Shown: positions 36,725 through 62,888, counted from the stretch's first letter. The stretch is 64,000 bases of DNA from an uncultured Acidobacterium sp. (GCA_964513235.1 CAZEMI010000017.1:13835-77834); one strand, 5' to 3'. The notes: a model not told the origin generated them from the letters alone. Translations and numbers: made by a program.

Positions 36725-37630
36725 ATGGCCGTCATTGAATGCGTTCCAAACGTCAGCGAGGGCCGCCGGACCGACCTCGTCCAGCGCCTGGCTGGCTCCC
36801 TCGAGGCGGTCCCCGGATTGAGCGTGCTCGACGTCCAGTCCGACGCGTCGCACAATCGCTCTGTTTTCACGCTCGCCGGCGACGCCGAAGCGCTGGCCGC
36901 CGGAATCCCGAAGCTGTTCGAAGGCGCCATCGCGGCGATCGATCTGCGGTCGCACAGGGGCGAGCATCCGCGGCTGGGCGCCGTCGACGTCGTGCCGTTC
37001 ATTCCGATTGAAGGCGTGACGATGGAGGCGTGCGTGGAGCTGGCCAAGCGGGTGGCCGCGGATGTCGCGTCGCGGTTTTCGCTGCCGGTGTACCTCTACG
37101 AAGAGGCGTCGGGCAACCCGGCGCGCAAGCACCTCGAAGACATCCGGCGCGGCGAGTTCGAAGGCCTGGCCGCGAAGATGGCGCAGCCGGCCTGGGCGCC
37201 CGATTACGGCCCCGCCACGCCGCACCAGACCGCGGGCGCCACCGTGATCGGCGCGCGAATGCCGCTCATCGCCTACAACGTCAACCTGGCCACCCACCGG
37301 CTTGACGTGGCCAGGAAGATCGCGGCGGCGGTGCGCATGAGCGGCGGCGGCCTGCGGTATGTCAAAGCGATGGGGATTCCGCTCGCAGACCGCGGCATCG
37401 TCCAGGTGTCGATGAACCTCACCAACTACGAGAAGACGCCGATCTTCCGGGTGTTCGATCTGGTGAAGCGCGAGGCGGAACGGTACGGCGTGCAGGTTCT
37501 CGAAAGTGAGATCGTCGGGCTGGTGCCGGCGGCGGCGCTCCGGCAATCGGTCGAATACTATCTGCAGCTCGAAGGATTCTCCGGAGCGCAGGTGCTGGAG
37601 AACAAGCTTAGGTCCCGCCCCGGGGCGTGA
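36725..37630 (+). CDS. Glutamate formimidoyltransferase (FtcD N-terminal-type)
   Basis: 301 aa (VIECVPNVSEGRRTDLV...DASHNRSVFTLAG...HPRLGAVDVVPFIP). Confidence 0.85.
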   Translation: MAVIECVPNVSEGRRTDLVQRLAGSLEAVPGLSVLDVQSDASHNRSVFTLAGDAEALAAGIPKLFEGAIAAIDLRSHRGEHPRLGAVDVVPFIPIEGVTMEACVELAKRVAADVASRFSLPVYLYEEASGNPARKHLEDIRRGEFEGLAAKMAQPAWAPDYGPATPHQTAGATVIGARMPLIAYNVNLATHRLDVARKIAAAVRMSGGGLRYVKAMGIPLADRGIVQVSMNLTNYEKTPIFRVFDLVKREAERYGVQVLESEIVGLVPAAALRQSVEYYLQLEGFSGAQVLENKLRSRPGA

Positions 37631-38975
37631 TGCCAAACGCGCGAAGCTTTTTGTACAGGTTCGAGCGTTCCACGCCAAGCACTTCGGCGGTGCGCGACAT
37701 GTTCCCCTGCTGCGCGGCCAGCGTCTGCAGGATGTAGTCCTTCTCGAACCGATCGCGGGCTTCGGACAACGGCTGCACGGGCCCCGCCGCGGCCGGCGCC
37801 TCCGGCACCCCGTCGCGGCCGAGAAAGCCCACATCCTGCGCCGTGATGGTGTCGCCGCCGACAAAAATCAGCAGCTTCTCGATCACATTGCGCAACTCGC
37901 GGACGTTCCCCGGCCACGAGTGCTGCTGCAGGCGCGCCGCCGCTTCGGGTGCCAGCCGCTTCGGCCGCTTGCGATCCTCGGCGGCCAGCAGCGCGATGAA
38001 GTGCTCGGCCAGCAGCGGAATGTCCTGCTGCCGTTCCCGCAACGGCGGTACGAAGATCGGAATGACGTTCAACCGGAAGTACAAGTCTTCGCGGAACCGT
38101 CCCGCTCGAATCTCCGCCGGCAGATCCCTGTTGGTTGCCGCCAGCACGCGCACGTCGACCTTGATTCGCTGCGTGCCGCCGACCCGCTCCATCACCTGCT
38201 CCTGCAGCACGCGGAGCACCTTGGCCTGCGTTTTCAGGCTCATGTCGGCAATCTCGTCCAGGAAGATCGTGCCGCCGTCGGCCTGTTCGAATCGACCCGG
38301 CTTGTCCGCGACCGCCCCCGTAAAGGCGCCGCGCACGTGCCCGAACAACTCGGACTCAATCAACTCCTCCGGAATCGCGGCGCAGTTCACTTCGACGAAC
38401 GGCCCGCTCTTGCGCCGGCTGGTGTGATGGATGGTCCGCGCCACGAGCTCCTTGCCGGTGCCGCTTTCGCCGAGAATCAAGACCCGACCGTTGGTCGGGG
38501 CGGCGAGCGACACGTGGTCGCGCAGATGGCTCATCGCCGGGCTCTCGCCGACCATCGTGTACTGCTGCTGGCGGTCGACCTTGGCGCGCAGCACGCGGTT
38601 TTCGGCTTCGAGATCGCGCTGGCGCAGCGCGTTGCGCACCACCAGCACCGTCTTCTCGAGCGACAGCGGCTTCTCGATGAAGTCGAACGCGCCCATCTTG
38701 ATGGCGCGGACCGCGGACTCGATGTTGCCGTGGCCGGAGATGATCACCACCTGCGAATCGATCTGCCGCTCGCGCAGCCGCTGCAGCGTGGTCAGGCCGT
38801 CCAGGCCCGGCAGCCAGATGTCGAGCACCACCACGTCGAACGCCGCGCCGTTGGCCTTCTCGAGGCATTCTTCGCCGGTGCTGGCGGTGTCGACGTCGAA
38901 GCCTTCGTCCTGCAGGACCCCGCTGATCGACGAGCGCACGCCCGGTTCATCGTCGACGACGAGGATGGACGCCAT
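37608..38975 (-). CDS. ntrX: Sigma-54-dependent response regulator (NtrC/NtrX family)
   Basis: 455 aa with a REC domain (ILVVDDE...VVVLDIWLPGLDG), an AAA+ domain (GESGTGKELVA, GAFTGA) and a Fis-type HTH (GNMSRTAEVLGVERSNLYKKLRAFG). The start overlaps the kinase stop (TGATG). Confidence 0.85.
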   Translation of the reverse strand: MASILVVDDEPGVRSSISGVLQDEGFDVDTASTGEECLEKANGAAFDVVVLDIWLPGLDGLTTLQRLRERQIDSQVVIISGHGNIESAVRAIKMGAFDFIEKPLSLEKTVLVVRNALRQRDLEAENRVLRAKVDRQQQYTMVGESPAMSHLRDHVSLAAPTNGRVLILGESGTGKELVARTIHHTSRRKSGPFVEVNCAAIPEELIESELFGHVRGAFTGAVADKPGRFEQADGGTIFLDEIADMSLKTQAKVLRVLQEQVMERVGGTQRIKVDVRVLAATNRDLPAEIRAGRFREDLYFRLNVIPIFVPPLRERQQDIPLLAEHFIALLAAEDRKRPKRLAPEAAARLQQHSWPGNVRELRNVIEKLLIFVGGDTITAQDVGFLGRDGVPEAPAAAGPVQPLSEARDRFEKDYILQTLAAQQGNMSRTAEVLGVERSNLYKKLRAFGITPRGGT

Positions 38976-41257
38976 CAGGCCGGCAACTCGATGATAAACC
39001 GCGTGCCGGTGGGCACGTTGTCGGTGACGTCAATGCTGCCGCCGTGCTCGGCGACAATGCGCCGCACGATCGCGAGGCCCAGGCCGCTGCCGCGGCCCTT
39101 GGTCGAGTAGTACGGCAGGAACAATTTGTCGCGCTCGGCGGCGGGAATGCCGGGTCCGGTGTCGGCCACCACGATGCGCACCAGGCTGTTCGGCACGTCG
39201 CGCGCGGTCTCGATCACGATCGTGCCCTGCCGCTCCATCGCTTCGATCGCGTTGTCGATCAGGTTGATCATCACGCGCTTCATCTGCTCCGGATCGACGC
39301 GCACCTGGGTGACGGCCGGGTCGTAGTGCTTCTGGAATGCCACTGACCCGAACAGCCCGTCGTACAGCGACAAGGTGTGGGTGAGAAAGGCGTGGAGCTC
39401 GGTGGGCACCGCGCGCGGTGCCGGCATGCGCGCGAACTGCGAGAACTCGTCGACGAGCCCTTTCAGCGATTCGACCTCGCCGATGATGGTCGAGGTGCAC
39501 TCCTGCACGAGATCCTGGAGCGGCGGCGCCACGTCGCCGAGCTTGCGGCGCAGCCGCTCGGCCGACAGTTGAATGGGCGTCAGCGGATTCTTGATCTCAT
39601 GGGCCAGCCGGCGCGCCACTTCGCGCCACGCCGCCACCTTCTGCGCACGAATCAGCGGCGTCACATCGTCCACTACCAGCACCGTGCCGTCGAAGCTGCC
39701 GTCGGTGCCGGCCACGCGGGTGGCCGCCGCCACCACGTGACGCTCGCGGCCGTCGCGCACCAGCGCCACTTCCTGCGCAAAGGAATCCATCTTGGCGCGC
39801 GCGGCCTGGTCGAGCACCTCGTTCATCGGCGCGAGGTCGGGTCGCGCGAACACGTCGACCGCCGCGCTCCCGACCACGTCCGCCGTCACTTCGAGCAGCC
39901 GCATCGCCGAGGGGTTGATCGTGCCGATGCGTCCGGCGCGATCGATCGACACCACGCCGGTGGCAATCCGCTCGAGGATGGCTTCGATGTAGCGGCGGCG
40001 GCCTTCACCCTCTTCGTGCTTGCGTTCGAGATCGATGCCGGCGCGCTCGAGCCGCTTGCGCGTCTGCGACACTTCCGCGGCCATCGCATTGAAGGCCTCG
40101 ACCATTGATCCGAACTCATCGCTGCCTTCGTGCTCGATGCGATGATCGTAATGGCCGGCGCCAATTTCCTTGGCCGCTTCAGAGAGCAACTGCACCGGCC
40201 GGGTGATGCGCTTGGCGAGATACAGGCCCATCCACGTCGAGCCCACCAGAATCAACAGCGTGACCATGACGAAGAACGACACGTAGACGCCGGCCAGCGG
40301 TTGTTTCAGCACCCGCAGCTGCGTGTAGTCCTCGTAGGCCTTCGACATCCGGCGCGCCTGGTCCGCGAACTCGCCGGACAGGTACTCGCTGGTCACCACC
40401 ACGCCGGTAATCTGCCCCGCGGGAGTGCGCACCGGCGTCGCGACGTGGACGAGATCCCCACCGGCCGGGAGTTGATCGATCCGGCTCGGCGCCGCTTCGT
40501 CTCCGGAGGCGACCCGCGCCGCCAGCGGATCGGCGGAGGAGCGCGCCCACCCTTGCGGCATCGACGGCGAGGCGATGTCCACCACCGAGACCACGCTCAC
40601 CGGCTGACCGGGTTCGCGCACCGCGCGATACACCTGGACCATCACCACGCGCTGTCCCGTCACTTCCGGCGTGACGATCCGCTGCACGCGCGTCAGCTCC
40701 GCATCCGACAGGTCGACCGGGCTCAACGAGCGGGCGATGCGGGACGCCTGTTCGGTGACCAGCCGCTGCCGCTCCTGGTAGTAATCGCCGGCAATGCGGT
40801 TGGCGCCGCTGAGGATCTCCTCCATCGGCGCGTTGAACCAGCGATCGACGGCGGTCAGCACCACCCGGCTGCCGACGATCATCACCAGCACCGACGGAAT
40901 CACCGTCATGCCCAGCATGGCGAGCACGAGCTTGGCGCGGAAGCGGCCGAACGGCAGGCCGCGCCGCCCGTCCATCAATGACTTGATCACGTTGCGCGCC
41001 AGCACGAACACCAGCGCCAGCAGCATGGTGATGTTGGTCGCGGAAAGCGCGATCAACACCACTTCGGTGAGGAAATCCGGGGACAGCGTCGCCGTGCGAT
41101 CGGCCAGCCAGACGATGCCGCCGAGCGCGGCGAGCAGGATGACGATCCCGGCGAGGATCAGCGGCGGGTTGTCGCGAAACGGCCGGCGCGCGGGCGCCGC
41201 CGCCGCCGGCCTGACGGCCGGCCGCGACCCGGTACTGAGCGGCTTCGCGGTTGCCAC
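38975..41257 (-). CDS. ntrY: NtrY-like sensor histidine kinase (TM-HAMP-PAS-HisKA-HATPase)
   Basis: 760 aa with N-terminal TM helices, the H-box LAHEIKNPLTPIQLSAERL (as I recall, characteristic of NtrY) and a C-terminal ATPase (GTGLGLAIVRRIV). Confidence 0.8.
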   Translation of the reverse strand: MATAKPLSTGSRPAVRPAAAAPARRPFRDNPPLILAGIVILLAALGGIVWLADRTATLSPDFLTEVVLIALSATNITMLLALVFVLARNVIKSLMDGRRGLPFGRFRAKLVLAMLGMTVIPSVLVMIVGSRVVLTAVDRWFNAPMEEILSGANRIAGDYYQERQRLVTEQASRIARSLSPVDLSDAELTRVQRIVTPEVTGQRVVMVQVYRAVREPGQPVSVVSVVDIASPSMPQGWARSSADPLAARVASGDEAAPSRIDQLPAGGDLVHVATPVRTPAGQITGVVVTSEYLSGEFADQARRMSKAYEDYTQLRVLKQPLAGVYVSFFVMVTLLILVGSTWMGLYLAKRITRPVQLLSEAAKEIGAGHYDHRIEHEGSDEFGSMVEAFNAMAAEVSQTRKRLERAGIDLERKHEEGEGRRRYIEAILERIATGVVSIDRAGRIGTINPSAMRLLEVTADVVGSAAVDVFARPDLAPMNEVLDQAARAKMDSFAQEVALVRDGRERHVVAAATRVAGTDGSFDGTVLVVDDVTPLIRAQKVAAWREVARRLAHEIKNPLTPIQLSAERLRRKLGDVAPPLQDLVQECTSTIIGEVESLKGLVDEFSQFARMPAPRAVPTELHAFLTHTLSLYDGLFGSVAFQKHYDPAVTQVRVDPEQMKRVMINLIDNAIEAMERQGTIVIETARDVPNSLVRIVVADTGPGIPAAERDKLFLPYYSTKGRGSGLGLAIVRRIVAEHGGSIDVTDNVPTGTRFIIELPA

Positions 41258-44947: not shown

Positions 44948-47900
44948 CTATTTCTTCGGCTTGTCGTCCTTCGGCGCCTTGATGGTCCACTCGAAGTCGC
45001 ACGTGTCGGTTGCGTGGCCGTCACTCACCGTGACCACGGCCCGGTAGTGGCCCTTTCCAGTGGGAGTACCGAAAATCAGGCCCGCCGGATCAAACTCGAG
45101 GCCCGGCGGCAGGGTGACCACATGGAACTCCAGGCGATCGCCATCCTGATCGAACGCAGACAGCTTCAATTCGAGGTCCTGGCCCACTTTCGATTCCTGA
45201 TCGTTCAAGTGCTTGATACGCGGCGCATGATTCTTCGGCAGAATCGTCCATAGGAAGGTTTGCGAGACCTCCTCGCCTCTGAGGCGCATGGTGACGGTGA
45301 CCTCCTCGGGGCCCCGTTCGCCGCGCCGTGAGACGTGGCCTGAGATGACGCCGTCGTGCCGGCCAATGTGCAACCCGCGCGGCAGGTTCTCCGCGCGGAA
45401 CGTCGGCCGTTTGAAGTGCTTGTTCCCTGAACCGGGGGCGCTCCACTGCAACTCCAGTCGAACCTTCTCGCCCTCGGTGTTGCTCTGCGAATCGGGGTTG
45501 GTCAGCGAGATCTGCGACGGCGCCGCCGTCACGATCCACAGGAACGACGTCGTCGCCGAGTCCGTACCGTCCGACACGGTCACCTCGACGTTGACGTCGT
45601 CCGCCTGGGTCGGCGTACCCGCGATGGTGATGTTGTTGTTGCCCGGAGTCCACGTCAGTCCCTGGGGCAGACCCGTGACGGTGAAGGTCAGCGTATCGCC
45701 GTCCGGATCGCTCCCCGTGATCACCAGCGGCGCGATCGCCATGTCCTCCTGAGAGGTCTGCTGCGCAATCGGGTCGACCGACGGCGCGCCGTTCACCGCC
45801 ACTACCGACGCGATCACGAACGGGCTCAGTTCCATCACTCTCGCGCACACCTTCTGAGTCGCGAAGTCGTTCGGCAGCACGGTGCGATCGACAAACACTC
45901 CGCCCTCGCCGTGCAGAACTCGCAGCAGCGCGAACTGCGGCTCAGCCAGGCTCAGCGACGAGACATTGAAGCACAACACGATCGGACCACTGAACTTCGC
46001 GGTGGTCGTCACGTTGAACGCCGGCAGGCCGGCGATCGAGAACCCGGCCGGCACGCTTCCCGGATCTACTTGGGTGGGCGTCACCAGCGTGGTGCCCGGG
46101 TCAGTGATCGTATCGAACGTGATGTCCGCCTGCGGCGTGTCAACGGTCACGTCGTCACCCGGCGGCGTATTGTCGAACGGGAACGGGTCGTCGGCATCCG
46201 GCACGCCGTCGTTGTCGTCGTCGTCGTCGACGCAGTCTGCGTCGTCGTCATTGTCATTGTTCGGGAAGCCTTCGTTGTTCAGGCCGTCGAGATCGTTGTC
46301 GACCGCGTCGCACACCTCGGGCGTCGAGGCCGCATTCAGCGGATCCGACCCGGCTAGGCCCTCAGCGACGTCCGAGTGGCCATCGTTGTCGTCGTCGGTG
46401 TCGATGCAGTCGGCATCGTCGGTCCCATCCGTATTCGGGAAGCCTTCGTTGTTCAGGCCGTCGAGATCGTTGTCGATCGTGTCGCACACCTCGGGCGTCG
46501 AGGCCGCATTCAGCGGATCCGACCCGGCCGCGATCTCCGCTGCGTCGTCGAAGCTGTCGTTGTCGTCGTTATCGTCGCAGGCGTCGCCTTGCGCATCGGG
46601 GTCGTGGTTGGCCTGGTCGGGATTGGCGACCGCAGGGCAGTTGTCTGCGGCGTCGAAGACACCGTCGCCGTCGCCGTCGGCTTCTCCGCCGCCGGGCGCC
46701 GCGAGGTAAAAGTCGAGGGCCCAGCCGGCGCGGCACGCCAGGTCTGGACGGTCGTCGCCATTTCCCAGGTTGCCGCAGGCGGCAACGTCAATGCCGATGA
46801 ACTGAAAGAGGTAATCGTGCGCGTCCTCGGCGCCGGGCCAGCCCTCTTCGACACCAATCATCAGGTTCAGGCGCGCTTCGGGTCCATAGTAACCTGCGTA
46901 TGGGCGGTGATTGAAGGGATCGCCCTGCGTCGCGTCGCGGATCTGCTCGAGTGTCGTGAAGGGCGTGTTGTGCGCCCACCACGAATCCGGATCGTTCGGG
47001 TCGCCGGTGAACTCGGCCACCTGCAGCGTGAACGGCGCGCCCCACGGGATCTGGGATCCCACCGGGTAGACCTCTCCGTTTATTTGGCTGAAATCCAGAG
47101 TGTTCGTCAGCGTGGACGTGCGTGGATATGCCGGCGTGTTTCTGAACAGATCCAGCTGCAACTTCGCGATTACATCTCGATGTGCCAGCCCGCCCTCGAA
47201 GCCCTGTTTACTGGCGCGATCGATCGCCCAGGCCACATAGTTCATCTCCCACATCGCGACCATGCCCGGCTCGGGACGGAAGCCGATCCACGGAATCTTC
47301 AGTGGATTCGTTGCCGGCTGGTTGTGCACATAGTCATCGAGCCACTGGAGGTTCGCCGTCACCTTGTCGCGCAAGTAATTGCGCACGGGCGATGCATCGG
47401 GATAGTACGCGGCGGCGTCCACCAGGTTGCGCAGGGCCCACGCCACGCCACGCGTCTCGTTGTCGTTCCCGAGAATGCCGTCGGCGCCTCGCACTCCGTT
47501 CTCGGGCGATGTCTTCATCATTCCGTAGTTCGCCCAGAACGCCATTTCCTCGGCGTAGTACCGATCGCCCGTGAGCAGATACGGCACATAGGCGATCGAC
47601 GGCTGGTGTGCGTTGTCGGGGTTGAGGGGGCTCTGGCCAGATCCTGGAACCGGATTCTCGGTGCCCGTCCCCAGCGGCATCGGGGTGCCGCGAACAAAAT
47701 CAATACCGCAACATGACGCCAGGTTTTCCGCCCGATCGTCGAGCCAGAGCCACGGCCGCAAGTTGAGGGAGACTAGGTTTTCCGCACCGACGCCGGCGTG
47801 GGCAGACGTCCCGTCTTCAGGTTCGCGCACGTGAATGGGCCACGACCCCGACAGATCGCCATTGGCCAGCACGAACCTCTTTTGGTCGATGTCCTTATGA

Positions 47901-48793
47901 ACGAGGTAACGCGCGGCCCAATCGGGATACGGCGCCAGTTCCGGCCGACCCGAATGGGCCGGCATGTATCGGGTCAGTGCACCTTCTCTAAGGATGTCGA
48001 ACGTCGGCCCCATGTCGTTCACCACGGCGGCCACCAGCGGCAGATAGGGCGGCAAAGCCTTGGTCGTGTTCAGCGAGGCGATGTCGGGAGTGATGATGGC
48101 CGACATCGCTCCGGATGGTCCGATCGTCTTGGTATGCCGCCAACGCGTGAGGTAAAAGTGCTCGATGCCGAGCCGGGAAAACGACGGCTGAACGGGATTA
48201 TCCACCCAGATAGTGGCGTCATACGTCACCGTGCTCGCGCCAATTTGGTCGAGCATGTTCTCCACCGACACGTCGGCACGGCCGCTGCCGTCGTTGTAGC
48301 TGCGCACATCGAAATTGATGCGCAAGAACGGATGCGGGATCCCGCCGGCATTGGGCGCCACGACATGGCGCGTCTCCTGCACCAGCGGTCCCTTGAGCCA
48401 ATAGTCACCAGGCGCCGACGGGGCAACCGCGCTGTGAGGCGTGCCGTTGATCGACATGTCCACCGAAACGTTGCGAGGGATGGGCGTGAAATCGCCCAGC
48501 TCTGACGGCGCCGGGTAAATGGCGTAGTTGTTTTCGGCCGGGACCTGCACCGTGAGAATGGCAAACTTGATTGAACCGCCAGGCCAGCGGTTTTTGACGT
48601 CGGTCTGCGTGGTAAGCGATCCGACCTGAAGTCCATCGTAGGCCGAACCTTCTGGGACGGCTTGGCCGAACGTTGCCCAACCAGTACTCAAGTGGACCGT
48701 GCCTATGGGATCCGGCACCGCCGCAAACATGGCGCGGCTGACGAGAACCAACAACAGAAGTGCAACAACGCCGTAGTGAGCGCGACGGCTCAT
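44948..48793 (-). CDS. Large secreted multidomain protein: PcRGLX/YetA-like N-terminal region + TSP3-type Ca-binding repeats + Ig/cadherin-like (He_PIG-type) domains
   Basis: About 1281 aa from the ATG at 48793, with GGAGGA 8 nt upstream. A signal peptide (HYGVVALLLLVLVSRAMFAAV) leads into an N-terminal region (NRWPGGSIKFAIL) and a helical toroid-like region (AHQPSIAYVPYLLTGDRYYAEEMAFWANY). Asp-rich repeats follow (DNCPAVANPDQANHDPDAQGDACD, DNDLDGLNNEGFPN). C-terminal repeats include DGDTLTFTVTGLPQGLTW and DGDRLEFHVVTLPPGLEFD. Confidence 0.8.
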   Translation of the reverse strand: MSRRAHYGVVALLLLVLVSRAMFAAVPDPIGTVHLSTGWATFGQAVPEGSAYDGLQVGSLTTQTDVKNRWPGGSIKFAILTVQVPAENNYAIYPAPSELGDFTPIPRNVSVDMSINGTPHSAVAPSAPGDYWLKGPLVQETRHVVAPNAGGIPHPFLRINFDVRSYNDGSGRADVSVENMLDQIGASTVTYDATIWVDNPVQPSFSRLGIEHFYLTRWRHTKTIGPSGAMSAIITPDIASLNTTKALPPYLPLVAAVVNDMGPTFDILREGALTRYMPAHSGRPELAPYPDWAARYLVHKDIDQKRFVLANGDLSGSWPIHVREPEDGTSAHAGVGAENLVSLNLRPWLWLDDRAENLASCCGIDFVRGTPMPLGTGTENPVPGSGQSPLNPDNAHQPSIAYVPYLLTGDRYYAEEMAFWANYGMMKTSPENGVRGADGILGNDNETRGVAWALRNLVDAAAYYPDASPVRNYLRDKVTANLQWLDDYVHNQPATNPLKIPWIGFRPEPGMVAMWEMNYVAWAIDRASKQGFEGGLAHRDVIAKLQLDLFRNTPAYPRTSTLTNTLDFSQINGEVYPVGSQIPWGAPFTLQVAEFTGDPNDPDSWWAHNTPFTTLEQIRDATQGDPFNHRPYAGYYGPEARLNLMIGVEEGWPGAEDAHDYLFQFIGIDVAACGNLGNGDDRPDLACRAGWALDFYLAAPGGGEADGDGDGVFDAADNCPAVANPDQANHDPDAQGDACDDNDDNDSFDDAAEIAAGSDPLNAASTPEVCDTIDNDLDGLNNEGFPNTDGTDDADCIDTDDDNDGHSDVAEGLAGSDPLNAASTPEVCDAVDNDLDGLNNEGFPNNDNDDDADCVDDDDDNDGVPDADDPFPFDNTPPGDDVTVDTPQADITFDTITDPGTTLVTPTQVDPGSVPAGFSIAGLPAFNVTTTAKFSGPIVLCFNVSSLSLAEPQFALLRVLHGEGGVFVDRTVLPNDFATQKVCARVMELSPFVIASVVAVNGAPSVDPIAQQTSQEDMAIAPLVITGSDPDGDTLTFTVTGLPQGLTWTPGNNNITIAGTPTQADDVNVEVTVSDGTDSATTSFLWIVTAAPSQISLTNPDSQSNTEGEKVRLELQWSAPGSGNKHFKRPTFRAENLPRGLHIGRHDGVISGHVSRRGERGPEEVTVTMRLRGEEVSQTFLWTILPKNHAPRIKHLNDQESKVGQDLELKLSAFDQDGDRLEFHVVTLPPGLEFDPAGLIFGTPTGKGHYRAVVTVSDGHATDTCDFEWTIKAPKDDKPKK
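46261..46527. repeat. 93-bp near-identical direct duplication inside the giant gene (period 174 bp = 58 codons)
   Basis: 46261-46353 and 46435-46527 differ at 2 positions (GACCGCG versus GATCGTG). They encode AGSDPLNAASTPEVCDxxDNDLDGLNNEGFPN. Confidence 0.9.
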
Positions 48794-48833
48794 AAAACGA
48801 TCCTCCAAGGTTTGCGGTAGACGGCGGCGGCGT

Positions 48834-48849
48834 TGCAAAACACCTTCCG
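48834..48849 (-). promoter_or_regulatory. Weaker sigma-54 promoter candidate for the giant gene
   Basis: On the minus strand it reads CGGAAGGTGTTTTGCA. The GG/GC spacing is correct, the -12 element TTGCA is good and the -24 element is poor. The -12 C lies 42 nt upstream of the ATG at 48793. Confidence 0.3.
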
Positions 48850-48920: not shown

Positions 48921-48946
48921 ATTTGGCAGACTTTTGTCTGCCAAAT
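48921..48946. promoter_or_regulatory. Perfect 11-4-11 palindrome, candidate enhancer (UAS) site
   Basis: ATTTGGCAGAC-TTTT-GTCTGCCAAAT. Further half-sites are GCAGACTT at 48995-49002 and GTCTGCC at 49075-49081. Confidence 0.5.
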
Positions 48947-49085: not shown

Positions 49086-49101
49086 TGGCGACATCTTTGC
49101 T
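49086..49101 (+). promoter_or_regulatory. Sigma-54 (-24/-12) promoter candidate for the EBP-EPS operon
   Basis: TGGCGACATCTTTGCT matches TGGCACG-N4-TTGCW with exact spacing. The -12 C lies 76 nt upstream of the ATG at 49176. Confidence 0.6.
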
Positions 49102-49175: not shown

Positions 49176-50243
49176 ATGCGATTCGATGGAACCGCCCAAC
49201 TTTTGGGCGAGAGTGCGGTTATTCGTGAGCTGCGGGATGAAATAGGGCGCGTCGGCGGCACCGACGCGAAGATCCTCATCACCGGCGAAAGCGGCTCCGG
49301 TAAGGAAGTGGTCGCGCGACAGCTCTGGGCGAACAGTAAGCGCTCGAGCCGGCCGTTTGTCGCCGTCAACTGCGCGGGCCTGCCCGAAACCCTGCTCGAA
49401 TCCGAGCTATTCGGACATGTCCGCGGCAGCTTTACCGGTGCCTTCCGCGACAAGCCCGGCAAGTTGGAAATCGCCGACGAAGGCACCTGCTTCATGGATG
49501 AAATCGGGGAAATGACCCTGCGCATGCAGGGCCTGCTGCTCCGCTTCTTCGAGACCGGCGAAATTCAAAAGGTCGGCGCACACCGCTCGGGCAGCCGCCT
49601 GGACGTCCGCACCATCGCGGCGACCAACGCCAACCTGCCCGAAATGATTCAGAAGGGGCTTTTCAGAGAAGACCTCTTCTACCGCCTCAACGTGATTCAC
49701 CTGATTGTGCCGTCCCTACGCGAGCGGAAGGACGACCTGCCGGTGCTCATCGAGCATTTCGTGGCGCGGCTCTCGCAACCCGGCATCCACGCGGCGCGGG
49801 CGATCTCGCCGGCCGCCGTGGCTCTGCTGAAGGAATACCACTGGCCTGGCAACGTCCGCGAACTGCAGAACGTGATCGAGCGGATGCTCATCCGTTGCCG
49901 CACCGATGTGATCGGCGGCGACGACGTGCCACTCAAGATTCGCGAAAGCCAGCCGCTGACGCCGGCGCCGTTCCGTGAACGCCGGCGGACGATCGTGGAC
50001 GACCTCTATCAGCGGATGACCTCCGAACAGCATTCGTTCTGGACCACCGTGTATCCGCTATACATGCAGCGCGAGATCACCCGCACCAGCGTGCGCGACC
50101 TCGTGCGCCGCGGCTTACAGGACTCCAACGGCAGCTACAAGGTGGTCGCGCGCCTGTTCAACATGGAACAGAACGACTACAAGAAGTTCCTCAATTTCCT
50201 CCGCAAGCATCACTGCCAGCCGTCGTATCGGGAGTTCCGATGA
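49176..50243 (+). CDS. Sigma-54 enhancer-binding protein lacking any N-terminal sensory/receiver domain
   Basis: 355 aa. The AAA+ core begins within about 10 residues of the start ([39 protein letters not shown]). It has a GAFTGA variant (GSFTGA) and ESELFGH. The C-terminal HTH-like segment ([27 protein letters not shown]) diverges from the Fis type. A GGAG Shine-Dalgarno sequence lies 8 nt upstream. Confidence 0.88.
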
Positions 50244-50860: not shown

Positions 50861-50879
50861 CCGGATTGACGGTTTGGAC

Positions 50880-52157
50880 ATGCGCCCCCGCCTCCCTGTT
50901 CCGTTGCTGGCCCTTGTCGTCGCCCTGTCGGTGGCGGGTGCGAACGCGCAACAGGCTCGGAGACCGTTCAGAACCGAGTTCGGCCCAGGCGAGCGAGACG
51001 AGCAGCGCGCGGATCAGCTGGTGCTGACGGGCGGCACCTACGCCGGGGCCGACGACACGTCGCGATTGGCGGGGGCCGCGTTGCTCGATGAAACGCTGCA
51101 AAGCGGACGCATGCATCAAGGCGGCAACGTGTCGCTGCGGTATGTCCGGCGCCGCCCGAGACTCTCGCTGTCCGCGTCCGGCGGGTCGTCAGTGCGCTAT
51201 TACCATTCGCTGAATCGCATCGGCACGCAGCGCCACTCGGTGTCGGCCTCGGGCGAGTGGGTCGCCAGCCGCCAGCTGTCGTTTCAGTTCGGACAGGATG
51301 TCAGCTATTCCCCGTCGTACCACCTGTCGTTCGCCGCCGCACCGGACATCGGTGCCGAGGCGCCGGCCGATCCGGGATCGCTCGACTACGACCTGAGTAG
51401 GAGCAAGCAGTTCATGCTCGGGTCGTTCGCCAGCGCCAGGTACGTCCTGAGCCCGAGCCGTGAGATGACGGCCGGCTACGGCCTGAGCTACACGAACTAT
51501 CTGACCGCGCAACAGCCCGACTTCGGCATCCAGCAGGCCTCGTTTGGTTTCTCGCAGCGGCTGGCCACTGGCGTGGCCCTCAAGTTGGGGTACGGCGTTG
51601 GCACGGGCACGGGCACGGGCCTTGGCGAGGGTGTGCGCCAGATCATCGATGCGGGCGTGGCGTTCGATCGATCGATCTCGATCTCGCCGCGAACCATCGT
51701 CGGGTTCAACTCGGGCTCCGCGATCGTCAACACCGACGGCGGCCGCCAGGTGGAGCTGATTGGCAATCTGAATGTCCGCCGGCGGCTGAGCCCGCGCTGG
51801 ACGGCGTCGATCGCGTATCAACGCGGCCTCATGGCGATCGACGGCGTGCCGAATCCGCTCACGACCAACACCATGACCGCCGACGTGAGCGGGTTCCTCG
51901 GCATGACGACGAGCGTCACCATCCGGCCGGTCTATACGTGGGGGGCCGACGTGAACGACGCGACCCAATCTTTTCGCAACAGCACGAGCATGGCCCGCGT
52001 GCAGACGGCACTGGGACGCCACTTGGCGGCATTCGCCGAATACATCTACTACGACCATCGGTTCGGCGCCATCGTCGGGCTTCGCCCGTCGCTGGCGGTT
52101 GACACGCGCCGGCACGGATTGCGGACCGGCGTGACGTTATGGTCGCCGCTGCGCTAG
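50880..52157 (+). CDS. Putative outer-membrane beta-barrel protein of EPS loci
   Basis: Signal peptide MRPRLPVPLLALVVALSVAGANAQ, alternating beta-strand-like pattern and a C-terminal ...GLRTGVTLWSPLR. It resembles the uncharacterised barrel protein of PEP-CTERM-type loci (from memory). Confidence 0.6.
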   Translation: MRPRLPVPLLALVVALSVAGANAQQARRPFRTEFGPGERDEQRADQLVLTGGTYAGADDTSRLAGAALLDETLQSGRMHQGGNVSLRYVRRRPRLSLSASGGSSVRYYHSLNRIGTQRHSVSASGEWVASRQLSFQFGQDVSYSPSYHLSFAAAPDIGAEAPADPGSLDYDLSRSKQFMLGSFASARYVLSPSREMTAGYGLSYTNYLTAQQPDFGIQQASFGFSQRLATGVALKLGYGVGTGTGTGLGEGVRQIIDAGVAFDRSISISPRTIVGFNSGSAIVNTDGGRQVELIGNLNVRRRLSPRWTASIAYQRGLMAIDGVPNPLTTNTMTADVSGFLGMTTSVTIRPVYTWGADVNDATQSFRNSTSMARVQTALGRHLAAFAEYIYYDHRFGAIVGLRPSLAVDTRRHGLRTGVTLWSPLR

Positions 52158-57967: not shown

Positions 57968-59062
57968 ATGTCCGCCTCGGTTGCCGCAGTCCCCCGGCTT
58001 GCACGTTCGGCGTCGACGGTGCCGCCGGCCGTTGACGTCGCACTGTCGACAAACCCCTCGCCCGCGGCGTGGGACCAGTTCGCGCGACACACGCCAGATG
58101 CCGGGCTCTATCACCTGTGGGGCTGGCGCCGCGTCATCGAAGAGACGTTCGGCCACGAGACCATCTACCTGTCGGCCACGCACGCCGGCGCGATTGTCGG
58201 CATCCTGCCGCTCGCAATTTTCCGCAGCCGGATCTTCGGGAACTTCGCGGTGTCGCTGCCATTCGTTGACCAGGGCGGCATCTGCGCGGCCGACGAGGGC
58301 GTGAGACGCGTCCTGGCCAATTGCGCCGCGTCGGTTGCCGCCAGCCGGCACTTGTCTCACGTGGAGCTGCGCCATGTGGCGCGGCAGCAGCCCGAGCTGC
58401 CGGTGCGGCAGCACAAGGTCGGCATGACGCTGCGCCTGGTGCCGGATCTCGGCAAGGCGTGGACGCTGCTCGATCGCAAGGTGCGCAACCAGGTTCGCAA
58501 GGCGGAAAAGGGCGGACTGACCGAGCGGCGCGGCGGGCTGGAGTTGCTGGACGCGTTCTACGACGTGTTCTGCCACAACATGCGCGATCTCGGCACGCCC
58601 GTCTATCCGCGCCTCTTCTTCGAGCGCATCATCTCGACCTTCGCCGATTCATCCACCGTGTTCGTGGTCGAGGATCCACGGCGCACACCCGTCGCCGCCG
58701 CGATCGGTCTGGTGCATCGAGACTCCTTCGCGGTGCCGTGGGCCTCGTCGCTGCGCGAGTTCCGGGCGCAGAGTCCGAACACGCTGTTGTATTGGCGGAT
58801 GATCGAGCACGCCATCGCCTCGGGATTGACGACTTTTAACTTCGGCCGTTCGACACCTGGCGAAGGCACGTATCAATTCAAGGAACAATGGGGCGCGCGC
58901 CCCACACCGCTGCACTGGGAATACGTCCTCGAGTCAGGACGGCCGCTCCCGGATCTCACCCCCAAGAATCCGAAGTTCCGCGCCGCCATCGCCGCCTGGA
59001 AGCGGCTGCCGGTGCCGGTGACGCGATGGATCGGCCCCCACATCATTCGCTCGATTCCCTAG
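57968..59062 (+). CDS. FemAB/GNAT-like protein of EPS loci
   Basis: 364 aa (WDQFARHTPDAGLYHLWGWRRVIEETFGH...LLYWRMIEHAIASGLTTFNFGRSTPGEGTYQFKEQWGA). Confidence 0.8.
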   Translation: MSASVAAVPRLARSASTVPPAVDVALSTNPSPAAWDQFARHTPDAGLYHLWGWRRVIEETFGHETIYLSATHAGAIVGILPLAIFRSRIFGNFAVSLPFVDQGGICAADEGVRRVLANCAASVAASRHLSHVELRHVARQQPELPVRQHKVGMTLRLVPDLGKAWTLLDRKVRNQVRKAEKGGLTERRGGLELLDAFYDVFCHNMRDLGTPVYPRLFFERIISTFADSSTVFVVEDPRRTPVAAAIGLVHRDSFAVPWASSLREFRAQSPNTLLYWRMIEHAIASGLTTFNFGRSTPGEGTYQFKEQWGARPTPLHWEYVLESGRPLPDLTPKNPKFRAAIAAWKRLPVPVTRWIGPHIIRSIP

Positions 59063-59079
59063 GGGCCACACGCGATCGC

Positions 59080-60348
59080 GTGTACACGTCGGTTGCCGTT
59101 GCCTTCGTCGCGCTCGCGACCTGGGGCAGCTGGTTTCCGTTCGTGTTCCGTCCGTTGCCGTGGGATGTCGCCATCGCGTGGCTGTGGTGGAGCGCTACGC
59201 CCGCACAATTCTCGCTGACCGACGCGCTCTCGAACCTGCTGCTGTTCGTGCCGATTGGCGTGTTCGCGGCATCAGTGCTCGGCCGCCGCGGACGAGTGCG
59301 CGACAGCGTGGCCGTGATCGCCCTCGGCGCGGCGCTCAGTCTTGCGCTCGAACTGGGCCAGCTGCTGGTGCCGTGGCGAATCCCCTCGGTGCTCGACATC
59401 GCCTTCGAGACCGCCGGCATGGTGGTGGGGGTGTTGGTACGGCGCGTGGCCGCGGCGGAGCTCGACGCTCTGACGGGCCGGCTGATCATGGCCTGGCGCA
59501 CGGCCGGCATTCGCGAGCGCGTGCTGTGGGCCTACACGGCCACGTTCGCCATCGCGTGGCTGATGCCATTCGACTTCACCATCCGTCCGGATGAGATCGG
59601 CGACAAGTACGAGCACAAACGGCTGGTGTTGCCGTGGATGCCGTCGCCCGATGCGGCCACCACGGCCGAGTCATGGCTGACCGCGGCTGCCGCGGTGCCG
59701 CTCGGCTGGGCCTTCGTGCTATGTGCGAGCGATGCAGGCTGGCGACGCTCGGTGGCCGCGGCCATCGCCGACGCCGCGGCGCTGCTGGTGGCGCTGACCC
59801 TGTTGCAAGTGACGGTGTTCTCGCGCACCACCGACATCACTCTCACGTTCGCCGCGTTCGGCGGCGCTGCCGCCGGCGCCATCATGGCGGCCCGCATGAC
59901 GGTTCGGACGGTGCGCCCGCGGGACCACTCGTCGATGCGGTTCGCGGCGCTCGCCGCCACCTGGATCGCGGCGGTGATTGCGATCGAATGGTGGCCGCTT
60001 CAGTTCAATCTCGACGTCGATCGCATCCGGCAGCACGCCGCCGCCTGGTCGTACGCGCCGTTTCGCGCGCCAGCCACGGCCGCGGACGTCGTGCCGGGCG
60101 CCCTGCTCGCCATTGCCGGTGCCGTGATCGCATCGCCGGGCAGCCGCGCGGCGTACGCGCGCCTCCACCTGATGGCCGCACTCATCGCCGCCGGCGCGCT
60201 CTTCGCGACGATTGAGGCCGGACACCTCCTGGCCGAGACCCACACCCCCACGCTGGCATCGGTTGCGATTAAGCTCCTCGCATTCGCCGTCACGCTCGCC
60301 TTCGCGAGCGCGGCGCAGCCGATCTGGTCGTCGCAGGCACGGTCATGA
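59080..60348 (+). CDS. Polytopic membrane protein with three VanZ-like repeats (start uncertain: GTG 59080 or ATG 59026)
   Basis: LTDALSNLLLFVPIG...ELGQLLVPWRIPSVLDIAFETAGMVVG is VanZ-like. Two further degenerate copies follow (LLQVTVFSRTTDITLTFAAFGGAAAG and IEAGHLLAETHTPTLASVAIKLLAF). There is no exosortase-type CSG motif. Confidence 0.55.
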   Translation: MYTSVAVAFVALATWGSWFPFVFRPLPWDVAIAWLWWSATPAQFSLTDALSNLLLFVPIGVFAASVLGRRGRVRDSVAVIALGAALSLALELGQLLVPWRIPSVLDIAFETAGMVVGVLVRRVAAAELDALTGRLIMAWRTAGIRERVLWAYTATFAIAWLMPFDFTIRPDEIGDKYEHKRLVLPWMPSPDAATTAESWLTAAAAVPLGWAFVLCASDAGWRRSVAAAIADAAALLVALTLLQVTVFSRTTDITLTFAAFGGAAAGAIMAARMTVRTVRPRDHSSMRFAALAATWIAAVIAIEWWPLQFNLDVDRIRQHAAAWSYAPFRAPATAADVVPGALLAIAGAVIASPGSRAAYARLHLMAALIAAGALFATIEAGHLLAETHTPTLASVAIKLLAFAVTLAFASAAQPIWSSQARS

Positions 60349-62888
60349 TGTCGGCGCCGCTCACCGTGTCGATTCCCGCCACGCCGAATCGCGGCGTGCT
60401 ATGTGAGCCGCTGACCTTCGGGATGCCCTTCCCTGCGGGGCTGGTCCGCGACGAGAGCGATATTCATCTTCACGACGACGCCAGCCGCGTCACCGCGCTC
60501 CAGGCTCGCGCGACCGAGCGATGGCCTGACGGCAGCATCCGCTGGGCGTTGCTCGATTTCCTGCTCACGGGTGCGCCGGCGCCGGAGCGGCAGTTCTCGG
60601 TTCGTCTCGGCGCCGCCGGCCCGCAGCCGGCCGCGCCTCCGCTCACCATCGACGCCGCGGCGCGCAAGATCACAATTGATACCGGGGTCGCATCGTTTGT
60701 CGTCAAGACGGGACCTGCATTCCCATTCGCCTCCGTGCACGTGCTGGGGGTGCCCGCACTCGGCGCGGCGGGGTGCGCATTCGTGACGACCACGCCGGAC
60801 GGGCGGACGCTCGAGACGCGGGTCACCGACGTGGCCGTCGAAGAGCGGGGCGCATTGCGAGCGACCGTGCGGATCCACGCCAGCGTGGGCCCGCCCCGGC
60901 ATCCATCCTTGCTGCTGACTGCCCGCGTGCAGTTCATTGCCGGGTCGGCGGCGGTGCGCCTGGCGGTCACGCTGCGCAACGTCAAGCGCGCGCAGCATCC
61001 GGGAGGCATCTGGGAGTTGGGCGACCGCGGATCCGTCTACCTGCGCGACGTCTCGCTGCGGCTTGGTCTTCCCGGCGCCATCACGCAGACCGAGTGCGCT
61101 CCCGAGATCGGCACGCCCGCTGAATCCTGCCCGGCGCCGGTGGAGCTGTACCAGGATTCGAGCGGCGGCGCCAACTGGCACCACACCGCCCACGTCGATC
61201 GGCACGGCGAGATTCCGTGCACATTTTGCGGCTACCGGTTGCACGGCGACGGCCGCCGCGCCGACGGGCGGCGCGCGACGCCGCTGATGATCGCGCGGCA
61301 CGCCACCGGCATGGCCGGCATCGCGGTCGAGCACTTCTGGCAGAACTGGCCGCAGGCGATCGCGATTGAACCCGACGCCGTCGTCTGGCGGATGCTCCCC
61401 GGACACACGGCCAACGAACACGAGTTGCAAGGCGGCGAACAGAAGACCCATCGCTGCACGCTGATTTTCGGCGACGATCCCTGCGCGCGCGACGCGGGTA
61501 TTTGGGGTCGGATACCGGCGTTTGCGCGGCTCACGCCGGCATGGTATTGCGCCAGCCAGGCCGCCGGCGTGCTGACGCGCGCCGGATCCGATCCATATCA
61601 GCAGCTCGTCGACGCCGCCATCGAGGGTCCCGGTTCATTGCTGCAGAAGCGCGAGGACGCCGACGAGTACGGCTGGCGGCACTTCGGCGACATCTACGCC
61701 GATCACGAGAATGCGTTCAGCGGACTCGATGTGCCGGTGGTCTCGCACTACAACAACCAATACGACGCCATCGCCGGGTTCGCGCTGCAGTTCATGCGCT
61801 CGGGCGACCCGCGCTGGCACACGATGATGAACGAGCTGGCGTGGCACGTCGCCGACATCGACATCTACCATACGGATCGCGACAAGAGCGCGTACAACCA
61901 CGGCTTGTTCTGGCACACGGCGCATTACGTGACCGCCGGGCGCTCGTCGCATCGATCCTTCCCGAAGGACCCGCGCGTCAAAGGTGGCGGCCCGGCCAAC
62001 GAGCACAACTACACCGCCGGACTGCGCCTGCACTGGCTGCTCACCGGCGACTCGCCATCGCGCGAGGCGGCGATCGAGCTGGCCACGTGGGTGATCCAAA
62101 TGGACGACGGGCGCCGTACCTTCCTGCGCTGGTTGAGCACCAGCAACACGGGACTTGCGAGCCAGACCTACTCGCCGTCATTCCACGGACCCGGCCGCGG
62201 CGCCGGCCATTCGATTCTCGCGCTACTCGACGGGCATCGCCTGACGCACGACGACCTGTACCTGGCGAAGGCCGAACAGTTGGTGCGCCGCTGCATTCAT
62301 CCGGCCGACGACATCGAACGGCTGGACCTGCTCGATGCCGAGCGGCGCTGGTCGTACACCGTGTTCCTGCAGGTCCTGGGGCGGTATCTGGATTATCGCG
62401 TCGAACTCGGGCTGGTCGATGAGCACTACACCTACGCCCGCGCCGCGCTCGTGCACTACGCGCGCTGGATGATCGCCAACGAGTATCCGTATCTCGACAA
62501 GCCCAGGATGCTCGAATATCCCACCGAGACGTGGGCGGCGCAGGACATGCGCAAGTGCGACGTGCTCCTCGTCGCCGCGGGTCACGTCTCCGGCGACGAG
62601 CGTCGCATGTTCCTGTCGACCGCGGCACGGTTCTTCGAGTACTCAGTCACCACGCTGCTGTCGATGCCGGCGCGAACCCTCGCGCGTCCCCTCGTGCTGA
62701 TGCTGACCAACGGCTACCAGTACTTGTCGCCTGATGCTTCCGCGCCGCGGCCCGAGGGGCCGCTCGTCGCCGACTTCGGCGCGCCGGCGATATTCGTGCC
62801 ACAGAAAGCGCTGGTCAAGCGGCGGATTGCGATGACCGCCGGCGCGGTGGTCTTCGTGATCACTGCCACGGTCCTCGCACTGATCTGA
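60345..62888 (+). CDS. PcRGLX/YetA-like putative glycan lyase/hydrolase with C-terminal TM anchor (paralog of the giant protein N-region)
   Basis: 847 aa with N-terminus LTFGMPFPAGLVRDESDIHLHDD...ERWPDGSIRWALLDF, a helical region NEHNYTAGLRLHWLLTGDSPSREAAIELATW and a C-terminal TM helix IAMTAGAVVFVITATVLALI. The ATGA overlaps the upstream gene. Confidence 0.6.
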   Translation: MMSAPLTVSIPATPNRGVLCEPLTFGMPFPAGLVRDESDIHLHDDASRVTALQARATERWPDGSIRWALLDFLLTGAPAPERQFSVRLGAAGPQPAAPPLTIDAAARKITIDTGVASFVVKTGPAFPFASVHVLGVPALGAAGCAFVTTTPDGRTLETRVTDVAVEERGALRATVRIHASVGPPRHPSLLLTARVQFIAGSAAVRLAVTLRNVKRAQHPGGIWELGDRGSVYLRDVSLRLGLPGAITQTECAPEIGTPAESCPAPVELYQDSSGGANWHHTAHVDRHGEIPCTFCGYRLHGDGRRADGRRATPLMIARHATGMAGIAVEHFWQNWPQAIAIEPDAVVWRMLPGHTANEHELQGGEQKTHRCTLIFGDDPCARDAGIWGRIPAFARLTPAWYCASQAAGVLTRAGSDPYQQLVDAAIEGPGSLLQKREDADEYGWRHFGDIYADHENAFSGLDVPVVSHYNNQYDAIAGFALQFMRSGDPRWHTMMNELAWHVADIDIYHTDRDKSAYNHGLFWHTAHYVTAGRSSHRSFPKDPRVKGGGPANEHNYTAGLRLHWLLTGDSPSREAAIELATWVIQMDDGRRTFLRWLSTSNTGLASQTYSPSFHGPGRGAGHSILALLDGHRLTHDDLYLAKAEQLVRRCIHPADDIERLDLLDAERRWSYTVFLQVLGRYLDYRVELGLVDEHYTYARAALVHYARWMIANEYPYLDKPRMLEYPTETWAAQDMRKCDVLLVAAGHVSGDERRMFLSTAARFFEYSVTTLLSMPARTLARPLVLMLTNGYQYLSPDASAPRPEGPLVADFGAPAIFVPQKALVKRRIAMTAGAVVFVITATVLALI

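Follow-up and report, generated by a model that had tools for sequence, protein, structure and literature searches.

A 64,000-nt stretch of DNA from an uncultured Acidobacterium sp. (GCA_964513235.1, CAZEMI010000017.1:13835-77834; this whole stretch is called the window below) carries on its minus strand a gene, hereafter the target, for a 1281-amino-acid (aa) protein that is predicted to be exported. What is new here is its N-terminal module, which belongs to a sizeable family without a Pfam or NCBIfam name or a solved structure and is repeatedly linked to exopolysaccharide (EPS) loci of the PEP-CTERM type. The module is demonstrably related to the rhamnogalacturonan lyase PcRGLX only across its first about 160 residues; homology of its two beta domains to those of PcRGLX, together with a common domain order, is well supported, and the assignment of the helical domain that follows as a toroid is plausible but unproven. 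In the explanation that we favour, for which we see the chances as evenly balanced, the target is an exported, probably glycan-cleaving protein that carries a reduced PcRGLX-superfamily module on a stalk of calcium-binding thrombospondin type-3 (TSP3) repeats and immunoglobulin-like (Ig) domains, and acts on the EPS of an adjacent XrtA/PEP-CTERM operon.

The gene itself is clear. An open frame of 1296 codons spans 44948..48838 on the minus strand, and an ATG at 48793, with GGAGGA 8 nt upstream, opens the 1281-aa product. An earlier note on this DNA had read a secreted chimera of about 1281 aa at 44948-48793, and both this reading frame and the motif strings that it quoted are borne out by the translation, with NRWPGGSIKFAIL at residues 68-80, AHQPSIAYVPYLLTGDRYYAEEMAFWANY at residues 395-423, DNCPAVANPDQANHDPDAQGDACD at residues 717-740, and DGDTLTFTVTGLPQGLTW, FRAENLPRGLHIG and DGDRLEFHVVTLPPGLEFD all present. 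An identical protein sequence exists in NCBI, in a record without a protein name. The features of the target are the following, with the evidence for each in brackets.

44948..48793, minus strand: whole gene, 1281 codons and stop (open-reading-frame scan, translation, GGAGGA ribosome-binding site)
48722..48793, minus strand: predicted Sec-type signal peptide, residues 1-24, MSRRAHYGVVALLLLVLVSRAMFA followed by A (hydropathy heuristic)
48086..48703, minus strand: N-terminal beta domains, residues 31-236, RIFT-barrel-like (about 31-95, with RWPGGSIKFAIL) and then a small beta-sandwich (AlphaFold2, hhalign, PF19501, Foldseek)
46724..48085, minus strand: helical domain, residues 237-690, about 12 long helices and a beta-hairpin insert at 559-611 (AlphaFold2 secondary structure)
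46154..46696, minus strand: Asp-rich TSP3 Ca-binding repeat region, residues 700-880 (Pfam, PDB sequence search, motifs)
46205..46569, minus strand: 174-nt tandem duplication encoding two 58-aa STPEVCD...DDDNDG units (TRF)
45794..46153, minus strand: beta-rich segment (by composition), residues 881-1000, V- and T-rich (composition)
45524..45793, minus strand: He_PIG Ig-like domain 1, residues about 1001-1090 (Pfam He_PIG, E 2.1e-12)
45242..45508, minus strand: He_PIG Ig-like domain 2, residues about 1096-1184 (Pfam He_PIG, E 5.9e-7)
44981..45217, minus strand: He_PIG Ig-like domain 3, residues about 1193-1271 (Pfam He_PIG, E 1.4e-10)
44951..44980, minus strand: short Lys-rich tail KAPKDDKPKK (translation)

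The relationship to PcRGLX was reached from both sequence and structure. When the target was compared by BLASTP with an 847-aa PcRGLX-like protein encoded in the same window, the segment TFG..P.G...Q....RWP.GSI+.A+L was aligned (E 0.008), and the Pfam model PF19501 was weakly matched by 27 of 60 close family members and by 21 of the 47 more diverse ones (best E 2.6e-6), with no match to PF21345 listed in the scans of either set. Using hhalign, an alignment of close members matched the 847-aa family at the barrel with an E value of 7e-6, and an alignment of diverse members from genome loci (A4, 28-58% identity) matched it with a probability of 96% and an E value of 3.3e-9 over 159 columns. The latter match places target residues 24-180 on residues 7-213 of the 847-aa protein, which covers the barrel and the start of the sandwich (target residues about 100-180 on 100-213). 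The crystal chains of PcRGLX, 5xq3/5xqo, are in turn matched by the profile of the 847-aa family, with residues 21-213 aligned to 16-234 (E 1.9e-12). The AlphaFold2 model built with the family alignment has a pLDDT of 85 and a pTM of 0.89, with a pLDDT of 90-97 in the beta domains, and a Foldseek search of the PDB with this model ranked PcRGLX chain 5xqo_B first (E 1.1e-3, prob 1.00, 230 columns), followed by (alpha/alpha)6 sugar enzymes at E 0.1-1. The earlier note had proposed a PcRGLX-like N-region and had staked the proposal on finding similarity to PcRGLX/YetA. Such similarity emerges with the family profile, across the barrel and the start of the sandwich only, and the proposal is supported as regards beta domains and domain order; the target by itself matches no PcRGLX model of Pfam, even at E <= 1.

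PcRGLX from Penicillium chrysogenum (PDB 5xq3/5xqo) and the bacterial PcRGLX-like/YetA-like proteins share with the target a RIFT barrel with RW(P/A)DGS(I/V/L)(R/K)(F/W), and the order from barrel to sandwich to helical domain is identical in PcRGLX and the target. In contrast to these proteins, the target reaches the Pfam threshold of none of the PcRGLX models, and its beta region takes up about 205 aa as against about 440 positions for PF19501 and PF21345 together (83 and 360), besides which PF21346 is presumably a further Pfam model of the PcRGLX-like/YetA-like proteins. Homology to the helical domain of PcRGLX is undetectable, and the target, unlike PcRGLX, is bacterial, predicted to be exported, and fused to TSP3 and Ig modules. 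PcRGLX is a PL26 exo-rhamnogalacturonan lyase (EC 4.2.2.24) that acts as a catabolic pectin lyase (PMC13501991), and this review cites Kunishige et al. 2018 for its structure. A literature search on the catalytic residues of PcRGLX, and on PEP-CTERM together with rhamnogalacturonan lyase, gave nothing usable beyond that review. The target may or may not have the substrate and mechanism of PcRGLX.

In the explanation that we favour, about 650 residues after the signal peptide would form a compact unit of RIFT barrel, small beta-sandwich and alpha-helical toroid-like domain, a distant and shortened relative of the PcRGLX/YetA-like (PL26-type) superfamily. This unit would be the working part of the protein, glycan-binding and most likely glycan-cleaving, as a lyase or a hydrolase. 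Residues that are invariant in the family down to 28% identity comprise Q63, W132, R217, R283, H321, H396, Y405, E416, W420, R448, W452, R455, N481 and W515, and the polar ones fall mostly within the helical domain (R283, H321, H396, Y405, E416, R448, R455 and N481). A cleft for sugar binding or catalysis would be consistent with this set, and the pocket would be lined by the same invariant polar residues of the helical domain other than N481, along with W420/452/515.

For the helical domain, the best fold matches are (alpha/alpha)6 enzymes, namely the GH105/GH88 unsaturated glycuronyl hydrolases (YteR), the AGE-family epimerases and the Bacteroides lyase BACCELL_00875 (5noa), all of them non-significant (E 0.1-1, TM <= 0.36) and without sequence similarity; these enzymes, in contrast to the target, lack a RIFT-barrel/sandwich N-terminus. 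When a model of the helical part alone was used as the Foldseek query, the first 14 matches were all GH105, GH88, AGE-epimerase or polysaccharide lyase (PL)-type toroids, and the list also held, at E about 1-3, the thioester-containing domain (TED) of complement C3d/C4d, 14-3-3 and other helical repeats. Given that C3d/C4d TED, 14-3-3 and helical repeats occur among these matches and that every helical match is non-significant, the helical domain might have nothing to do with sugars, being instead a thioester/TED-, LanC- or terpenoid-cyclase-like toroid or a peptide-binding scaffold, with the RIFT barrel reused as a cap. We regard this as very unlikely: the top-ranked fold matches are sugar enzymes, both the genomic context and the fusion partners of the family are glycan-related, and no Cys-Gly-Glu-Gln-type thioester motif is conserved. 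Conservation within the family extends to no Cys motif, the only Cys pair of the helical region (C361/C362) included, and the thioester/TED reading was rejected for this reason.

To define the family, we ran an exhaustive profile search, which recovered 3406 representatives of 50%-identity clusters at E <= 1e-3 and 1187 at E <= 1e-30. A word-indexed search yielded 431 matches; the best 120 of these (45-74% identity) are named, if at all, 'hypothetical' or 'Ig domain-containing', and their stated taxon is mostly Vicinamibacterales metagenome-assembled genomes. The N-module family is found mostly in Vicinamibacterales and Planctomycetota, and the species-representative genomes that carry it belong to Acidobacteriota, Planctomycetota (including the isolate Singulisphaera sp. 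GP187), Omnitrophota, Anaerolineales and Noviherbaspirillum. Several paralogues per Acidobacteriota genome are common, with at least four in MFD09018.bin.1.114 and at least three in gp6 AA36; elsewhere in the window, neither an N-module paralogue nor a PEP-CTERM protein was found.

About half of the family are stand-alone proteins of 640-690 aa, and therefore the N-module functions on its own; in the others, which are multidomain proteins, the module is placed at one end or the other. The fusion partners (DUF4082, Big_5, fn3, CHB_HEX_C_1, Fn3_assoc, BACON_2, AGA-YXIM galactose-binding-like and Glucodextran_B, and further ConA-like Laminin_G_3, NosD/CASH beta-helix and G8 with CEMIP beta-helix) are typical companions of carbohydrate-active enzymes. 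One metagenomic member of 1875 aa (P0260) joins the module to G8 and a CEMIP-type beta-helix, as in animal hyaluronan depolymerases.

Downstream of the N-module, the TSP3 repeats reported by the earlier note at 46.15-46.70 kb, including two STPEVCD copies, were recovered at that place. The Asp content is 28% over residues 691-880 (encoded at 46154-46723), DxDxDG motifs start at residues 706, 774, 798, 832 and 856, and cysteines are paired at 719/739, 770/796 and 828/854. Two units of the form STPEVCD...DNDLDGLNNEGFPN...DDADC.D.DDDNDG begin at residues 765 and 823, and TRF describes the duplication with a period of 174, 2.1 copies and 83-89% matches. Pfam TSP_3 scores 27.1 bits in a segment scan as against 23.8 bits in the full-length scan (cut-off 25), with one canonical TSP type-3 repeat in Pfam and bacterial TSP3 repeats (TSP3_bac) besides, and a sequence search of the PDB aligns the region with type-3 repeats from thrombospondin-2 and COMP (E about 1e-13). 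Thrombospondin/COMP and the bacterial TSP3 proteins (PF02412, PF18884; OmpA-like proteins, myxobacterial MtsC) share DxDxDGxxDxxD motifs and paired cysteines with the target, which differs from them in its low number of motifs (about 5-6, including two that stem from the recent 174-nt duplication) and in that its repeats form a linker within an enzyme-like protein. The TSP3 stretch is also present in the closest relatives.

Residues 881-1000 gave no Pfam match at E <= 1, and beyond them the Ig/He_PIG modules of the earlier note were each confirmed separately as three Pfam copies. He_PIG (PF05345) totals 105 bits over the three stretches against a cut-off of 24, or 30-48 bits singly; domain 1 also scores above the cut-off of Big_9 and below that of Cadherin_5, and the Ig part matches SraP adhesin domains in the PDB sequence search. 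He_PIG extensions recur among Vicinamibacterales paralogues. In the favoured explanation, the TSP3 repeats, the beta-rich segment and the three He_PIG domains would serve as a rigid, calcium-stiffened stalk with adhesion modules that may retain the enzyme within the cell envelope or the matrix. A catalytic-type module combined with Ig domains and calcium-binding repeats is an ordinary layout for secreted bacterial proteins.

The same modules could be read without any enzyme, as a non-catalytic matrix or adhesin protein with a lectin-like N-module, whose TSP3 and Ig parts would cross-link calcium-bridged EPS or cells. TSP3 and He_PIG are typical of adhesins, the best weak NCBIfam match of the target is the cell-cohesion protein MtsC, SraP adhesin domains appear in the PDB search as noted, many family members are extended by Ig- or lectin-type modules only, and no catalytic motif or residue has been mapped in the N-module. 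We nevertheless consider this reading improbable, given that the stand-alone half of the family has no adhesion modules at all, and that about 20 residues, His, Tyr, Arg and Glu of the helical domain among them, stay invariant at identities as low as 28%, a pattern that is more active-site-like than lectin-like.

Export is predicted from the leader, which combines RR in its n-region with VVALLLLVLV in its h-region and an AxA-like site after AMFA, before the next A, by our heuristic; its core is a 12-mer with a Kyte-Doolittle hydropathy of 3.0. The only other hydrophobic segment is a single borderline stretch near residue 982, within the beta-rich segment. Comparable N-termini were found in 52 of the 57 family members that have an M start, and several members have lipoboxes, so that the signal peptide named in the earlier note agrees with both the heuristic and the relatives. 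The Lys-rich tail of that note is likewise present, KAPKDDKPKK being found at the C-terminus. A reading of the target as an XrtA PEP-CTERM substrate was rejected because the 1281-aa protein has no such tail.

Next to the target lies the XrtA/PEP-CTERM operon, whose divergent placement on the opposite strand, as described in the earlier note, agrees with the gene annotation. Its genes encode in order a PspF-like sigma-54 activator, an XrtA/PEP-CTERM exporter (TIGR03027), a secreted 427-aa protein, a chain-length determinant (TIGR03007), a system ATPase (TIGR03015), a tyrosine autokinase (TIGR03018), a priming glycosyltransferase (TIGR03013), a FemAB-like protein (TIGR03019), a polytopic VanZ-like protein and the PcRGLX-like protein; the TIGR03013 and TIGR03019 matches exceed their cut-offs. 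The elements between the two transcription units and the genes that matter below are the following.

48834..48848, minus strand: -24 GG/-12 GC element with sigma-54 spacing, GGAAGGTGTTTTGCA, about 40 nt upstream of the target ATG (position, conservation)
48921-48946, no strand: perfect 11+11 palindrome, ATTTGGCAGAC-AAAA-GTCTGCCAAAT, in the divergent intergenic region (alignment of three genomes)
49086-49100, plus strand: sigma-54-like element TGGCGACA(T/A)CTTTGC with -24/-12 spacing, 76 nt before the activator gene (conserved in three genomes)
49176-50243, plus strand: PspF-like sigma-54 activator, 355 aa (AAA+ domain from residue 10, without a receiver domain)
50874-52157, plus strand: 427-aa protein with a signal peptide (conserved at 87% in L002)
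58888-60348, plus strand: VanZ-like polytopic membrane protein, about 10 hydrophobic segments (open reading frame of the EPS operon)
60345-62888, plus strand: PcRGLX-like protein, 847 aa, last gene of the operon (Pfam PcRGLX_1st E 2.3e-10, PcRGLX_2nd)

The divergent arrangement of target and operon is syntenic in two other genomes, L002 (74% identity to the module by tblastn) and L008, and signals between the two are conserved. The palindrome keeps its core TGGCAGAC-AAAA-GTCTGCCA in L008 and reads GTTTGGAAGAC-AAAA-GTCTTCCAAAC in L002, where symmetric double substitutions compensate in both arms. It is a candidate binding site of the adjacent PspF-like activator. The two sigma-54-like elements face outward, one to the activator and EPS operon and the other to the target gene; at the place of the latter L002 holds GGTAGGCGTTTTGCA, and the target-side island GG(A/T)AGG(T/C)GTTTTGCA, about 40 nt before the ATG, is shared with L002 only. 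Because a window-wide scan for the sigma-54 consensus found 57 sites against 70 expected, which is not above chance, the reading of both elements as promoters draws only on their position and their conservation across genomes, and the target gene and the EPS operon may in this way be co-regulated. Since the target gene diverges from the sigma-54 activator that heads the operon, and the intergenic signals are conserved, the EPS of the adjacent operon would be its most likely substrate, to be trimmed, remodelled or released.

The last gene of the operon encodes the 847-aa protein used above. It shares with the target the barrel motif, profile homology and the locus; the shared part of the target is about 160 aa shorter. 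TSP3 and Ig modules are absent from the 847-aa protein, which, in contrast to the target, passes Pfam PcRGLX_1st and PcRGLX_2nd and has no signal peptide. Its C-terminal hydrophobic helix (residues 827-847), which follows KRR, and the missing signal peptide make it look tail-anchored, with its bulk probably cytoplasmic. Such a cytoplasmic-side placement is odd for a relative of polysaccharide lyases. More than 3300 homologues of this protein exist, labelled in some sources 'exo-rhamnogalacturonan lyase-like' or 'YetA-like', and homologues of the target family and of the 847-aa family co-occur on the same contigs. We tentatively put forward a wider proposal, which we hold to be rather doubtful, that the N-module founds a new PL or glycoside hydrolase (GH) family whose ancestral role would be to process XrtA/PEP-CTERM EPS outside the cell, as an exported counterpart to the PcRGLX-like protein that is tethered to the membrane, the two being co-controlled from a shared sigma-54 divergent promoter region via TGGCAGAC-N4-GTCTGCCA.

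To assess how often family members lie near EPS genes, we searched 77 genome loci by tblastn with the EPS proteins of the window, over a range of 10 kb. At least two EPS genes lay within that range in 7 of the 77 loci (Acidobacteriota, Planctomycetia and Noviherbaspirillum), and in 4 further loci a VanZ-like gene is the convergent neighbour, with family members bearing He_PIG having VanZ-like immediate convergent neighbours at L004/L019, L011, L020 and L024. On another Acidobacteriota contig, two tandem family members directly follow a PcRGLX-like gene within a full EPS locus, which holds GT4s, Wzy_C, an Asn-synthase-type amidotransferase and a PEP-CTERM protein. The family member P0071 is situated between Wzy_C/AsnB and a VanZ-like gene.

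These loci also bear on whether the target might be a catabolic enzyme secreted to attack foreign glycans, such as plant or microbial polymers of the soil, its position beside the EPS operon being a lineage-specific accident. The characterised relative PcRGLX is itself a catabolic pectin lyase (PMC13501991), several paralogues per genome would suit such a role, EPS genes are missing at most of the sampled loci, and the member P0058 sits amid genes for an alginate lyase, an alpha-L-fucosidase, GH97, a LacI regulator and a sugar transporter. Against this, three genomes with protein identities of 51-74% preserve both the divergence from the sigma-54 activator and the intergenic motifs, and members occur within EPS loci of Acidobacteriota, Planctomycetia and Noviherbaspirillum far above a base rate that we put, as an estimate rather than a computed value, at roughly 1%. 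We think this catabolic reading unlikely.

A number of results weigh against the favoured explanation of an exported, glycan-cleaving protein acting on the adjacent EPS. When the target was scanned with Pfam and NCBIfam, its N-terminal 690 residues remained unmatched even at E <= 1, and it matches none of the PcRGLX, PL or GH models of these databases; in the PDB sequence search the N-region was unmatched with the target and with two family profiles alike. Its beta-sandwich, at about 130 aa, is far shorter than the 360-position model of the PcRGLX central domain. The helical part alone, compared by hhalign with the C-terminal part of the PcRGLX-like family, reached an E value of only 0.087, with an 'LLTGD' motif common to both (E 0.13 by itself), and the helical-only model (pLDDT 76) gave Foldseek matches at E >= 0.14 and TM <= 0.29. 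The helical toroid-like region of the earlier note is thus sustained as far as its about 12 long helices in the AlphaFold2 model, and is without a significant sequence or fold match as a toroid. Since the Pfam-positive 847-aa neighbour also has no match to the third-domain model, the miss in the helical domain is weak evidence against a toroid. To these points are added the lack of a mapped catalytic motif given above, the C-terminus ...TIKAPKDDKPKK, which has no PEP motif, hydrophobic helix or other recognisable sorting signal that could anchor the protein, the presence of EPS genes near only about 14% of the sampled family loci, and at least one family member without an informative or sugar context.

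The Vicinamibacterales, like other Acidobacteriota, rank with the most abundant bacteria of soils, where their EPS are important for aggregation. To our knowledge, XrtA/PEP-CTERM EPS systems are almost uncharacterised biochemically. Because the N-module has remote homology to a polysaccharide lyase and recurs in the gene order of EPS loci, its family of about 3400 clusters offers a concrete target for a new glycan-cleaving activity and for EPS trimming or release; if the N-module is non-catalytic, the protein would be only a routine modular adhesin.

Several further observations concern the neighbourhood of the target. For a PEP-CTERM system one would expect a response regulator of the PrsR type, which the activator heading the EPS operon is not: TIGR02915 scores well below its cut-off. 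A separate NtrY/NtrX-like pair is found at 37608-41257. The 427-aa protein has no match in Pfam or NCBIfam and may be an outer-membrane component of the EPS system. As the VanZ-like open reading frame overlaps the FemAB-like gene by 175 nt, its true start is probably later; its homologue in L001 is called at 440 aa. In L002 (10001-15606), the closest relative on a long contig, the orthologue of the target is called as four consecutive open reading frames on the same strand (1062, 405, 266 and 116 aa), of which the first contains the TSP3 part and the last two contain the He_PIG parts; this reflects either long-read frameshift errors or a genuinely split, longer version of the protein. The window as a whole has a G+C content of about 65%, and its remaining content is made up of chromosomal housekeeping genes.

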